From UHGV virus genome UHGV-0230172: 15,951 nucleotides of DNA. One strand, given 5' to 3'. Below the pieces are notes generated by a model. It was not told where the DNA came from. It was given only the letters and a program-made list of their open reading frames with translations, and searched no databases. This stretch comes from a virus. A program made the translations under genes and the position numbers. This document shows positions 7,848 to 11,576 of this stretch, piece by piece. How positions within the stretch are numbered: the stretch's first letter is position 1; each line of letters begins with the position of its first letter.

Positions 7848-8318
7848 CTAATAAAATACCCAATTTTCTGTTTCTTGGTTGTGTCCAAAGTTATATTCAA
7901 TATCTGGTGTTGATGTATCAATATTTTTCATCCCATCAACAAGAGTTGATACAACAGCCAAATCTTGTTTTATTCTCATTAAATGGTATTTCTTCCGGCG
8001 CAATAAACTTTCAATAGCAAGTTTCTTCGTTGGGAATGCAAAAGATCTTTCTGCATTTTTTGCTACTTTCTTAATTGCATATCTATTTCTCCTTTGTTTC
8101 CATTCCTGTAACCACTGATTTGGTGCTGGTTTAAAATTAACAATCCAATGCGCAGGAACCAACCATGCATAATGCTCTGTCTGATGAAAAGCTATATATT
8201 GAAGTGCGAATATTTTTATCCCATCTTCTTCAACTGTCGCCTGGAATCTCCAGAAAACAGGCATTCCATCATGTTCAGTTTCTGATTCAGGAAAAGGTAC
8301 GCTCCATGATTTTGTCAT
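7848..8318 (-). CDS. Hypothetical protein in AT-rich moron downstream of N
   Basis: 156 aa; ATG at 8318 preceded by GAGGTGAGAT; region visibly AT-rich relative to flanks; no family recognised. Confidence 0.55.
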   Translation of the reverse strand: MTKSWSVPFPESETEHDGMPVFWRFQATVEEDGIKIFALQYIAFHQTEHYAWLVPAHWIVNFKPAPNQWLQEWKQRRNRYAIKKVAKNAERSFAFPTKKLAIESLLRRKKYHLMRIKQDLAVVSTLVDGMKNIDTSTPDIEYNFGHNQETENWVFY

Positions 8319-8372: not shown

Positions 8373-8510
8373 TTATTTATCCCACCAAGTTCCGTATCTA
8401 TCTATCCAGTTACACCAATCATCGACACTCCATTTTGTTGTGTCGCATTTTGGCAATTGGCATGAATATCTACCTTCTTTGTAAAGTCGGAGTTTGACTT
8501 TCTTGAGCAT
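8373..8510 (-). CDS. Small Cys-containing ORF (45 aa), hypothetical
   Basis: Below the track cutoff; ATG at 8510 just downstream of the N stop with GAGGTGG upstream; three Cys (MLKKVKLRLYKEGRYSCQLPKCDTTKWSVDDWCNWIDRYGTWWDK). Confidence 0.3.
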   Translation of the reverse strand: MLKKVKLRLYKEGRYSCQLPKCDTTKWSVDDWCNWIDRYGTWWDK

Positions 8511-8517
8511 GGCCACC

Positions 8518-8850
8518 TCAATCGTAATAAGCTGGAATTGATTTTCCGCGTTGCTTCTGGCGGCCTGAACAGGTCACACCCATTTCACTGCGTGGCTTGC
8601 TGTACCATGTGCGCTGATTCTTGCGCTCAATACGCTGCAGGTTGCTTTCAATCTGCTCGTGGTATTCAGCCAGCACCGTAAGGTCTATCGGATTCAGTGC
8701 GCTTTCTACTCGTGATTTCGGTTTGCGATTCAGCGAGAGAATAGGGCGGTTAACTGGCTTTGCGCTTACCCCAACCAACAGGGGATTTGCTGCTTTCCAT
8801 TGAGCCTGTTTCTCTGCGCGACGTTCGCGGCGGCGTGTTTGTGCATCCAT
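8518..8850 (-). CDS. N: Antitermination protein N
   Basis: From the ATG at 8850: MDAQTRRRERRAEKQAQWKAANPLLVGVSAKPVNRPILSLNRKPKSRVESALNPIDLTVLAEYH..., essentially lambda N including the arginine-rich motif; the C-terminal few residues differ. Confidence 0.93.
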   Translation of the reverse strand: MDAQTRRRERRAEKQAQWKAANPLLVGVSAKPVNRPILSLNRKPKSRVESALNPIDLTVLAEYHEQIESNLQRIERKNQRTWYSKPRSEMGVTCSGRQKQRGKSIPAYYD

Positions 8851-8960
8851 CTGGATTCTCCTGTCAGTTAGCTTTGAGTAACGCGCCGTGATGCTTATCT
8901 CCACGGTTGCTGTCTTGCAGCTGCATTTCGCGCTACTCAAAGCCTTCTGCTTTGAATGCT

Positions 8961-8991
8961 GCCCTTCTTCAGGGCTTAATTTTTAAGAGCG
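8961..8991 (-). promoter_or_regulatory. nutL (boxB hairpin and boxA)
   Basis: Minus strand reads CGCTCTTA (boxA, plus 8984..8991) then GCCCTGAAGAAGGGC (boxB, plus 8961..8975), matching lambda nutL. Confidence 0.85.
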
Positions 8992-9030
8992 TCACCTTCA
9001 TGGCGGTTAGTGCGTCCTGCTGATGTGCTT

Positions 9031-9093
9031 AGTATCACCGCTAGTGGTATTTGTGTCAACACCGCCAGAGATAATTTATCACCGCAGATGGTT
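9031..9093 (-). promoter_or_regulatory. pL promoter with operators oL1-oL3
   Basis: Minus-strand TTGACA (plus 9054..9059), 17-bp spacer, GATACT (plus 9031..9036); 17-bp operators TATCACCGCTAGTGGTA (9033..9049), CAACACCGCCAGAGATA (9057..9073) and TATCACCGCAGATGGTT (9077..9093), each matching lambda oL sites with at most one change. Confidence 0.88.
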
Positions 9094-9248
9094 ATCTGTA
9101 TGTTTTTTATATAGATTTATTTTTTGCAGAGTTGTGTGGCTTGGGAGGTGATCGAGAGATCAGAATTGCGTTGTTTAGTGAGTTGCACCTATTAATTTTA
9201 AAATAAATACAATTGGTTATGTGTTTTTAGGTGGGGCGATCGTGAGGC

Positions 9249-9274
9249 AAAGAAAACCCGGCGCGGAAGCCGGG
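9249..9274 (-). terminator. Putative rho-independent terminator after the rex-slot ORF
   Basis: Minus strand: CCCGGC-TTCCGC-GCCGGG followed by TTTTCTTTG, immediately downstream of the 9280 stop. Confidence 0.5.
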
Positions 9275-9279
9275 TTGTC

Positions 9280-9813
9280 TCATTTTTTAGTTTGCTTTGG
9301 ATTCGGTTTGTCTCTTCTTCCAATTATAAACACGCTAGTTAAAGCAACTAACTCAGCACCAAGAAGCCCGGTAGCCCAGCCATAAGCCTCGTGCTGAATC
9401 ATCTTGTAAGCAATTCCTGCGAAAACAAAGACAGAAGTCATCGCAAAGATCTGTCCGAGTCGATCTCGCCAAATTGCTCCCCTCTGTCCTGCTTTGTAAT
9501 ACTCGTGTCTGTGTTTTTGCTCAGCCTTAGCCATGTCCATTATTTCGCGAGCGAATCCTGGAGATATTCTTTCGTACTTAGCTAATTCGTCAGCGTCTGG
9601 GAGTGGCCCTGATCTAGTGTGAGTCACCTGCATCATGATGCCAGCTAGATCTGGCCTGTCCATGAGGCGCTCAAGAACTTGAGGGTTCTTTGCGACCTCA
9701 TTTATAAGCAGTTCGGTTTTACCGTCTTGAACTCGCCCTAACGGAGTTGGTTGGTTAACAAGATTTCTCGGGGCGGCGGTTTGAAGCTTTCTTTGGGATT
9801 TTTTTCTGCTCAT
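9280..9813 (-). CDS. Hypothetical membrane protein with two C-terminal transmembrane helices (possibly DUF2335-type), in the rexAB slot
   Basis: 177 aa; soluble N-terminal part with ISPGFAREIMDMAKAEQKHRHEY, then two hydrophobic helices (IFAMTSVFVFAGIAYKMI and WATGLLGAELVALTSVFIIG). No clear SD at the 9813 ATG; next in-frame ATG is 50 codons downstream. Confidence 0.6.
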   Translation of the reverse strand: MSRKKSQRKLQTAAPRNLVNQPTPLGRVQDGKTELLINEVAKNPQVLERLMDRPDLAGIMMQVTHTRSGPLPDADELAKYERISPGFAREIMDMAKAEQKHRHEYYKAGQRGAIWRDRLGQIFAMTSVFVFAGIAYKMIQHEAYGWATGLLGAELVALTSVFIIGRRDKPNPKQTKK

Positions 9814-9976
9814 TATCAGTTACAGCGTCTCTAACGTAACTACCTACCTTAACCCAATCTGAGTTGATAAGGTCGATGTCTGTAGCATTTGAATGATACT
9901 CGCTGTAGCTACCTGCTGGGCAAAGGTCAAGGATAGAGCCCATAGCGCTGAAAAAGTGCTTTGCAGATTTTTTCAT
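9755..9976 (-). CDS. Small hypothetical ORF (73 aa) upstream of the membrane protein
   Basis: Overlaps the membrane-protein ORF start by 59 nt in another frame; weak SD (AGGA, 9-nt spacer). May be a real partner gene or spurious. Confidence 0.3.
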   Translation of the reverse strand: MKKSAKHFFSAMGSILDLCPAGSYSEYHSNATDIDLINSDWVKVGSYVRDAVTDNEQKKIPKKASNRRPEKSC

Positions 9977-10164
9977 GTGGGGTGTCCTATATGTTGTTTA
10001 CTCTAATTTGAGTAATTGAAGTTTACGCAAAACCTAGCTTTCAGCAAGCAATACAGCACAAAAAAATCATGTAAATTTGCGTCTATTTTTATCTACCGGA
10101 AAAATGCTCAACAACTTTAGAGAAAAAATAGCAATACCAAATCAAACCAATTGCTGCTTCGCCT

Positions 10165-10881
<717 letters not shown>

Positions 10882-10883
10882 TT

Positions 10884-10954
10884 AAATCTATCACCGCAAG
10901 GGATAAATATCTAACACCGTGCGTGTTGACTATTTTACCTCTGGCGGTGATAAT
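10884..10954. promoter_or_regulatory. Right operator with divergent promoters pRM and pR
   Basis: oR3 TATCACCGCAAGGGATA (10889..10905), oR2 TAACACCGTGCGTGTTG (10912..10928), oR1 TACCTCTGGCGGTGATA (10936..10952); pR -35 TTGACT (10926..10931) and -10 GATAAT (10949..10954); pRM hexamers TAGATA/TAGATT on the minus strand. All match lambda. Confidence 0.92.
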
Positions 10955-10969
10955 AGTTGCATGTACTAA

Positions 10970-11179
<210 letters not shown>

Positions 11180-11186
11180 ATAACCC

Positions 11187-11218
11187 CGCTCTTACACATT
11201 CCAGCCCTGAAAAAGGGC
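11187..11218 (+). promoter_or_regulatory. nutR (boxA and boxB)
   Basis: boxA CGCTCTTAC (11187..11195) and boxB GCCCTGAAAAAGGGC (11204..11218), matching lambda nutR. Confidence 0.88.
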
Positions 11219-11274
11219 ATCAAATTAAACCACACCTATGGTGTATGCATTTATTTGCATACATTCAATCAATT

Positions 11275-11320
11275 GTTATCTAAGGAAATACTTACATATG
11301 CAACTTACAAGTACTCGCAA
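11275..11320 (-). promoter_or_regulatory. pRE-like cII-activated promoter overlapping the cII start
   Basis: Minus strand reads TTGC-GAGTAC-TTGT-AAGTTGC-ATATGTAAGTAT; lambda pRE has TTGC-N6-TTGC-N7-ATATGTAAGTAT with identical spacing. The repeats lie in cII codons 2-7. Confidence 0.45.
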
Positions 11321-11576
11321 GAAAGCGAATGCAATTACAAGCAACATCCTGAATCGAATTGCTGTACGTGGTCAGCGAAAGGTTGCCGACGCGTTAGGGA
11401 TTAATGAATCGCAAATTTCGCGATGGAAAGACAGCTTTATCCCAAAGATGGCCATGCTTCTGGCTGTGCTGGAATGGGGTGTTGAAGACGAGGAGTTGGC
11501 GGAACTGGCTAAGCAAGTAGCCAGAATGCTGACAAAAGAAAAAGCCCCGAAGAACGGCGAATTCTTCGAGGCCTGA
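11298..11576 (+). CDS. cII: Transcriptional activator cII (divergent from lambda)
   Basis: Start at the ATG at 11298 (TAAGGAAATACTTACATATG leader matches lambda); HTH and C-terminal region [42 protein letters not shown] parallel lambda cII; N-terminus and C-terminal tail differ. Confidence 0.85.
11534..11572 (-). terminator. Possible oop-like antisense terminator at the cII 3' end
   Basis: Plus 11548..11568 forms CGAAGAA-CGGCGAA-TTCTTCG; on the minus strand it is followed by GGGCTTTTTCTTTT. Position matches the lambda oop terminator, but the T-tract is offset and the stem is short. Confidence 0.3.

Follow-up and report, generated by a model that had tools for sequence, protein, structure and literature searches.

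A DUF2335 membrane protein gene and its small upstream partner in the rexAB slot of a mosaic lambdoid prophage: a candidate lysogen-expressed two-gene module

The mechanism of the RexAB system of phage lambda is still debated after 60 years. Other small inner-membrane proteins made from prophage or early genes at accessory positions, such as HK97 gp15, P22 SieA and T4 Imm, are the products of single genes acting on DNA entry. The slot between cI and N is a known mosaic hotspot, which is home to rexAB in lambda and to bstA in phage BTP1 (Owen 2021, PMC8585504). Among toxin-antitoxin systems, the Panacea antitoxins neutralise many unrelated toxins by direct binding (Kurata 2022, PMC8832971). Three validated PanT toxins depolarise the membrane and carry membrane helices at the C-terminus; two of the three also have a charged N-terminus (PMC8832971). 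Herein, we analysed the viral genome UHGV-0230172, in which two overlapping genes, orf73 and orf177, occupy the rexAB slot. The full stretch of 15,951 nt is called the window, and all feature coordinates are window positions. ORF177 is a membrane protein of the Pfam family DUF2335. What is new here, judged from sequence comparison, is that the small protein encoded by orf73 is a near-universal and specific upstream partner of DUF2335.

The swapped cassette and its two products

The window covers the early and immunity region of a mosaic lambdoid prophage whose relatives include Sf6, Sf101 and mEp043. BLAST found lambda matches on both sides of the cassette, at positions 10169-11238 (lambda 37231-38300, 98.1% match) and 8938-9276 (lambda 35496-35826, 90% match). 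The homology breakpoints lie at 9276/9277 and 10168/10169. These flanking matches indicate that the 892-bp segment 9277-10168 exactly substitutes lambda 35827-37230, which comprises rexB, rexA and spacers. The location of the cassette in the rexA/rexB slot, as proposed in an earlier sequence-only reading of this DNA, is thus confirmed by the breakpoints. The same reading had described the sequence as lambda-identical up to the cI stop codon. The cI, OR and cro stretch is 98.1% identical to lambda rather than fully identical. The swapped segment carries orf73 (9755-9976, 73 aa) and orf177 (9280-9813, 177 aa) on the minus strand, in the same orientation as cI and between the cI stop and a tIMM-type terminator. 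An AT-rich insert had been described as well; this applies to the 188-nt minus-strand spacer and leader (9977-10164, 34.6% GC), but orf177 (46.3%) is close to the window mean of 46.1%, and orf73 has 42.8%.

ORF177 matched DUF2335 (PF10097) with 63.8 bits at a cut-off of 25 (E 1.4e-17), and the match spans aa 72-121, the full 50-position model. The identical protein in RefSeq, WP_000087627.1, is labelled 'DUF2335 domain-containing protein', and ORF177 also matched phrog_3996 'membrane protein' (E 9.4e-43); the NCBIfam search gave no match. Two hydropathy peaks, at aa ~119-139 and ~146-165, are separated by a 6-residue loop. In the AlphaFold model, helices span residues 87-140 and 144-166, and the hairpin has a predicted local distance difference test (pLDDT) score of ~88-90. 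Basic residues occur on both flanks of the hairpin, and the C-terminal tail is basic. The positive-inside rule would place the N-terminal part and the tail in the cytoplasm, and ORF177 is predicted to be an inner-membrane hairpin with N-in/C-in topology. The N-terminal 118 residues are charged and were mostly modelled at low confidence, and a conserved motif, SGPLPxxxELxxYExxxPGFAxEIxxMAKxEQxHRH, lies at aa 68-103. Homologues in enterobacterial prophages share 47-93% identity, and the membrane hairpin is kept in distant DUF2335 members. The two C-terminal membrane helices noticed from the letters of the DNA are therefore borne out by the hydropathy and the AlphaFold hairpin. The protein had been taken for an unknown membrane protein; a membrane protein it is, but its family is already catalogued as DUF2335 and is not phage-specific.

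The outline of ORF177, a two-helix N-in/C-in hairpin with a charged tail, resembles that of class II holins, and we considered whether the pair has some other, non-defensive membrane function. This could be a holin- or antiholin-like role, lysis timing or a moron that modifies stress responses or physiology; the pair could also regulate a membrane protein or a protease of the host, in the way that has been proposed for RexB and ClpXP. The placement of the pair just past the holin and amidase genes in Staphylococcus phage E72 and among tail genes in Klebsiella phage RAH1 fits such a function. However, the cassette described here is part of the immunity region, where it lies between cI and pL and is co-oriented with cI and not with the late genes. 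For ORF177, the Pfam and PHROGs searches gave no match to a holin or lysis family, and the non-phage chromosomal copies described below argue against a lysis-specific role. We regard a function of this kind as rather unlikely. Homology to a lysis or morphogenesis protein, which the sequence-only reading had named as a refutation of its view, was not found in Pfam, PHROGs, PADLOC, NCBIfam or PDB.

Two type VI secretion papers give a 'DUF2335 phospholipase' as a toxin domain, and a Dickeya paper merely lists a DUF2335 gene among mutants. We take the phospholipase to be almost certainly a misprint for DUF2235 (Tle1 lipases), and it was set aside as irrelevant to function. The misprint could mislead text-mining of DUF2335 function.

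ORF73 is a small soluble two-helix protein encoded by a conserved gene, and it is the upstream partner of DUF2335. Its AlphaFold model has helices at residues 3-17 and 31-56 (pLDDT 71). ORF73 matched phrog_26284 (E 1.5e-39), no Pfam family at E<=1 (Panacea, PF13274, included) and no NCBIfam family. It carries the motifs GSILDLxP..Y and SDWxxVGxYxxxA, followed by a poorly conserved basic tail that spans the first 20 codons of orf177. We found 23 homologues with 58-100% identity, from Escherichia, Citrobacter, Enterobacter and Kluyvera; 19 of them are exactly 73 aa long, and the others have 74, 79 or 99 aa. ORF73 and DUF2335 homologues were found on the same contigs. What had been called a possible overlapping 73-aa open reading frame (ORF) is therefore a conserved gene and a near-universal partner. 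RefSeq/PGAP calls the DUF2335 gene but not the 73-aa gene in all three E. coli records inspected (L001-L003), which looks like a systematic annotation gap for the partner gene of DUF2335. The equivalent small ORF of Klebsiella phage RAH1 (L010 3784-3981) is also unannotated.

Pairing, gene overlap and fusion to Panacea

To describe the pairing, hidden Markov models (HMMs) of both families were scanned over every ORF of the fetched loci (more than 150). DUF2335 proteins from the viral-contig scan and from the E. coli, enterobacterial, named-phage and metagenome loci were pooled into 24 clusters at 60% identity, and 23 of these had the small ORF at E<0.01. Among genome loci, the small ORF was detected at the same threshold in 39 of 61, and many others showed the motif at weaker scores. 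These loci belong to Proteobacteria (including Rickettsiales), Bacteroidota, Bacillota, Planctomycetota, Cyanobacteria, Acidobacteriota, Actinomycetota and one Parcubacteria-group genome. Every match of the partner HMM at E<0.01 (123/123) immediately preceded a DUF2335 gene in the same orientation, and no partner match away from DUF2335 was found among 16,262 ORFs. A search of the ORF73-family profile against 1.8 billion representative proteins gave 79 clusters, almost all of 50-99 aa. ORF73 and ORF177 very probably act together.

The near-identical cassette is present in about 21 of 5,426 complete E. coli genomes, behind either the lambda-type cI or a second repressor type. Pairs with the same 59-nt overlap lie downstream of four distinct S24 repressors in prophages of E. 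coli, Kluyvera, Cronobacter and Pectobacterium, and the partner keeps a length of 73-74 residues across Citrobacter, Enterobacter, Kluyvera, Cronobacter and Pectobacterium prophages. In Pseudomonas phage MD8, a small ORF overlaps the DUF2335 start next to the integrase gene. Staphylococcus phage E72 has the same layout between its lysis genes (holin, amidase) and integrase, and so does RAH1 at its locus; all three positions are moron sites. The small proteins of these distant phages share the motifs GS(I/V)LDxxP..Y and DWxxVGxDxxxA. We infer that, in temperate phages, the module sits at lysogen-expressed accessory sites.

This distribution bears on the possibility that the module acts by superinfection exclusion, in which ORF177, aided by ORF73, would block DNA entry or an early step at the inner membrane without toxicity, in the manner of HK97 gp15, P22 SieA or T4 Imm, and the cell would survive. 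An inner-membrane product encoded at lysogen-expressed moron sites (beside cI, beside the integrase gene or after the lysis genes) fits such a system, and the PHROGs category is 'moron, auxiliary metabolic gene and host takeover'. However, the module is equally common at non-prophage chromosomal loci, including those of Rickettsiales and of a Parcubacteria-group genome. In addition, ORF177 is almost wholly cytoplasmic with a periplasmic loop of only ~6 residues, and the Panacea antitoxin fusions described below are hard to square with a harmless blocker. We consider exclusion of this kind unlikely. Even for a harmless module, the strict pairing of the genes and the conservation of their overlap would call for an explanation.

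The surroundings of the chromosomal copies were examined at 38 loci, taking the two nearest ORFs on each side (n=149). These ORFs matched 188 Pfam families, the commonest of which occurred 4 times, and no conserved third gene was seen among them. With no common neighbours, the module is a self-sufficient mobile two-gene unit. An autonomous unit without conserved neighbours is typical of mobile toxin-antitoxin-like modules, which supports a toxin-antitoxin-like reading of the pair.

Several partner proteins are longer than ORF73. A partner-domain protein at locus L122 (3319-3954) has an N-terminal extension of ~140 aa with a YKYGPYS motif, and two others (P0122 and P0154) have an N-terminal membrane helix. 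Given these varied N-terminal extensions, the partner domain acts as a portable adaptor. We also considered a divergent Panacea domain at the N-terminus of the L122 protein and rejected it, no such similarity being detectable.

The 3' end of orf73 and the 5' end of orf177 overlap by 59 nt on the minus strand (9755-9813), with orf177 in the +1 frame. The Kluyvera, Cronobacter and Pectobacterium prophages have the same start-to-start offset of 163 nt and overlaps of 59-62 nt, and overlap or tight juxtaposition of the pair recurs in distant lineages. Of the two frames in the overlap, that of orf177 is the better conserved (MSRKKxQRK ... LVNQP); the orf73 tail is variable, and its stop position is kept. 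Around the orf177 start, the sequence is A-rich and unstructured and shows no clear Shine-Dalgarno sequence. Folds of the overlap RNA were no more stable than those of shuffled sequences: three of four loci gave z values between +0.66 and +1.68, and the remaining one gave -0.25. A hairpin that sequesters the orf177 start and couples translation structurally is thus unsupported, the region being unstructured.

The long +1-frame overlap, which recurs in most lineages, could also mean that programmed +1 frameshifting or transcriptional slippage joins the two products into a single protein. A run of seven A residues (AGCAGAAAAAAATCC) is present at the orf177 start in the window and in Cronobacter. 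However, this run is not conserved in Kluyvera or Pectobacterium, orf177 retains its own conserved ATG and N-terminus (MSRKK), and the frame is +2, or the genes are separated by a gap, in some lineages. Moreover, the orf73 stop has no known +1 shift site, and the sole in-frame 'fusion' found (P0128, at locus L016) lacks the membrane hairpin and is a truncated remnant. We therefore rejected a frameshift or slippage fusion at the A run, and a fusion protein from this overlap seems extremely improbable. In the remnant, which was seen in two independent samples (L016, 3936-4486, and L017), the partner ORF continues in frame into the beginning of the DUF2335 motif (…SGPLPDPTILHEYEVIRPGFV*), after which it is truncated. 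It is probably a decaying module, adjoining an extracytoplasmic function (ECF) sigma/anti-sigma operon, and P0128 was not used as a natural 'Rosetta-stone' fusion in the argument.

The strongest functional clue came from two fusions of a different kind. A 238-aa protein (P0120) carries a SocA/Panacea domain (PF13274, E 1.3e-21) followed by an ORF73-type domain. Its gene is followed, with an 8-nt overlap, by a DUF2335 gene for 153 aa; the locus is chromosomal, with KaiA and RecJ as neighbours. A second Panacea-partner fusion (E 4.4e-19) was found in a Legionellales genome (L101). In both, the partner domain forms the C-terminal part and the gene lies immediately upstream of the DUF2335 gene. 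Judged by sequence, these fusions point to a toxin-antitoxin-like logic rather than to a lone membrane effector. Other features fit a type II-like toxin-antitoxin arrangement: the small gene comes first, the genes overlap, the unit is autonomous and mobile, and the downstream product is a membrane hairpin. In the available parts of the text and supplements of the Panacea paper (PMC8832971) and of the NetFlax supplements, DUF2335 is not named among the PanT families.

A toxin-antitoxin arrangement does not by itself imply defence. The pair could be a selfish addiction module that stabilises the prophage or mobile DNA by post-segregational killing and has no anti-phage role. An autonomous two-gene unit in variable contexts, an antitoxin-first overlapping layout and the Panacea link would all be expected of such a module. 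This explanation differs from a defensive one in biological role alone, as the mechanism would be the same. It fits less well with the repeated use of the most strongly lysogen-expressed accessory slot, which is elsewhere home to rexAB and bstA, and many toxin-antitoxin systems prove to be defensive. Pure addiction is, in our judgement, improbable.

Transcription signals, proposed mechanism and surrounding DNA

An intrinsic terminator on the minus strand was located by a consensus scan at 9255-9276 (fold -18.7 kcal/mol, z = -3.65). Its hairpin can be aligned to lambda tIMM as well as to those that follow the cassettes of Kluyvera and Cronobacter. Given this alignment and the position of the hairpin inside the lambda-homologous block 8938-9276, the terminator is a shared junction and not specific to the cassette; the sequence-only reading had credited the insert with its own terminator, which does not hold. 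It is presumed to form the 3' end of a cI-orf73-orf177 transcription unit, and cI is presumed to be the upstream gene of the lysogenic transcript from pRM. Between cI and orf73, the scan detected no terminator on the minus strand, where a weak hairpin has z = -0.29. Read-through from pRM into the cassette is therefore plausible.

The leader next to orf73 (9977-10076, minus strand) is conserved in alignment with Kluyvera, Cronobacter and Pectobacterium, and its identity to Kluyvera and Cronobacter is 78-81%, as compared with 70-75% for the coding parts. Three minus-strand elements were noted in it. First, an AGGA ribosome-binding site lies at 9985-9988. In addition, an 18-bp near-palindrome, TTACTCAAATTAGAGTAA, lies at 9998-10015, 22 nt upstream of the orf73 ATG. 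Finally, a weak promoter-like element, TTGCTG-N16-TAAACT, lies just upstream of the palindrome at 10020-10047 and occurs once in the window. The palindrome and the promoter-like element are both conserved in the Kluyvera and Cronobacter cassettes, and they may represent an internal promoter, an operator, or an element or hairpin of the 5' untranslated region. The standard promoter scan found no strong sigma-70 promoter above its threshold in 9977-10164, and an Rfam scan of 8400-11300 gave no match. The remaining AT-rich spacer, from the cI stop to the conserved leader (10077-10164, minus strand), is common to E. coli cassettes beside a different repressor but is not found in Kluyvera; the matches H68-H70 cover window positions 9233-10195.

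We propose that the cassette encodes a self-contained, lysogen-expressed pair of the toxin-antitoxin or abortive-infection type with a membrane effector. In a lysogen, the pRM transcript would run through cI, orf73 and orf177 and end at tIMM, and the weak promoter-like element and the palindrome in the leader could provide extra or regulated expression. ORF73, translated first, would bind the conserved cytoplasmic DUF2335 motif and hold ORF177 inactive. If ORF73 were lost, titrated or altered, by a superinfecting phage or upon prophage loss, ORF177 would oligomerise via its glycine- and alanine-rich hairpin. The oligomers would dissipate the membrane potential, so that growth would stop and the infection would abort. 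We assign a probability of roughly 45% to this mechanistic chain as a whole.

Several observations weigh against this proposal. Of more than 80 lineages, 2 carry Panacea fusions; the two fusions are similar in sequence and may therefore derive from one transferred lineage. No match of ORF73 or ORF177 to PADLOC-DB v2 was found at E<=1. Fold searches of the PDB with both models gave nothing significant, the PDB sequence profile search gave no match, and no clear enrichment of defence genes was seen among the 149 flanking ORFs of the chromosomal copies. A DNA-binding fold, which most type II antitoxins have, is not recognisable in ORF73, and the cytoplasmic part of ORF177 was modelled at low confidence (mean pLDDT 62.6). 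Transcription of the cassette in lysogens is presumed by analogy with lambda. Our literature search found no functional study of DUF2335 (PF10097, COG5346, IPR019284) or of its small partner.

The wider proposal, that the small DW..VG protein and the DUF2335 hairpin constitute an unrecognised toxin-antitoxin or abortive-infection family across many phyla, is more tentative. In such a family, the small protein would neutralise the effector and sense infection, and DUF2335 would depolarise the membrane. The earlier suggestion of a candidate exclusion module is partly supported by these results. An isolated 'unknown membrane protein' has become a defined two-gene family, and DUF2335, which ranges from Rickettsiales to cyanobacteria and staphylococcal phages, gains a partner and a testable hypothesis.

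Outside the swapped cassette, the cI gene of lambda immunity type lies at 10165-10878 on the minus strand and encodes a repressor with HTH_3 and Peptidase_S24 domains. The pL promoter, TTGACA-17-GATACT, is at 9031-9059, and N lies on the minus strand within 8518-8940. Otherwise different S24 repressors share the final ~25 nt of their genes (...CAGTGGCCTGAAGAGACGTTTGGGTAG, encoding QWPEETFG*); this 3' end occupies window positions 10165-10195 and corresponds to ~5590-5613 in L004 and ~5605-5629 in L006. The repressor 3' end and the tIMM hairpin appear to be two conserved junctions for cassette exchange. With the same flanks, the slot between cI and tIMM holds a gene for an NYN-domain protein in phages ev099 and 2B8. 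Elsewhere it holds a gene for a P63C-domain protein (several E. coli), one for a GspM-like protein (mEp332) or two hypothetical genes (HK544). The view of the slot as a recurrent home of accessory or exclusion genes thus agrees both with rexAB and bstA (PMC8585504) and with the NYN- and P63C-domain cassettes of E. coli prophages. Together, the cassettes of this slot form a small catalogue of candidate lysogen-expressed accessory genes.

On the other side of cI, lambda homology stops at 11238, just past cro. The cII-like ORF that follows (region 11238-11576) is unlike lambda cII save for a central stretch, SQISRWK…, and its listed start probably lies too far upstream. Further on, the replication genes differ in type from those of lambda (toprim/helicase). 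Downstream of N, the segment 7650-8400 is markedly AT-rich (33-39% GC) and contains an ORF at 7848-8318 on the minus strand for a 156-aa protein (phrog_1636, E 2.7e-112). It looks like a further accessory insert in the pL operon, at about the position of lambda ral/sieB. E. coli SC407 has a hypothetical gene for 156 aa at the corresponding position (L002 3595-4065); the match is one of length.

Comparison with described systems

The prophage defence protein BstA of Salmonella prophage BTP1 resembles the module in its setting: bstA lies downstream of the repressor gene, probably shares its promoter and is followed by a Rho-independent terminator (PMC8585504). However, the BstA system consists of one soluble, DNA-associated protein and has an element in the DNA for self-immunity; BstA has no homology to the proteins described here and its predicted site of action is another. 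HK97 gp15, SieA and Imm also differ from ORF177, which is mostly cytoplasmic and is nearly always encoded with a partner gene, and no homology to any annotated family of this kind was detected.

The PanA-PanT systems (Panacea/DUF4065; PMC8832971) are likewise antitoxin-first bicistrons found in phages and chromosomes, and their toxins share with ORF177 a charged N-terminus and C-terminal membrane helices. A validated E. coli PanT is annotated merely as a 'hypothetical protein' (PMC8832971). In contrast to PanA, ORF73 of the window has no Panacea domain, which is present in the fused relatives alone, and DUF2335 is a putative toxin.

RexA/RexB and the module share the slot from the cI stop to tIMM, the orientation and the presumed co-transcription from pRM. 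Both are two-gene units in which a gene for a soluble protein precedes one for an inner-membrane protein. A cytoplasmic partner controlling a membrane effector that collapses the membrane potential is described for Rex (Owen 2021, PMC8585504) and is proposed here for ORF73 and ORF177. The proteins share no sequence similarity (BLASTP E = 11 for ORF177 and RexB, and E = 1.6 for ORF73 and RexA). RexB has four membrane helices in 144 aa, whereas ORF177 combines a two-helix hairpin with a cytoplasmic part of 118 aa, and RexA has 279 aa as compared with the 73 aa of ORF73. The soluble Rex protein is an activator, whereas the Panacea link suggests that ORF73 is a neutraliser. Unlike RexAB, the DUF2335 module is also widespread beyond phages. 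By family it belongs to DUF2335, phrog_3996 and phrog_26284, and it is analogous, not homologous, to RexAB. As a simpler two-protein module in the rex slot, it would offer an easier model of membrane-acting prophage defence or toxin-antitoxin action. If the proposal is true, RexAB would have a minimal counterpart, without homology to it, in the very slot that rex occupies in lambda, and a whole Pfam DUF would gain a function.

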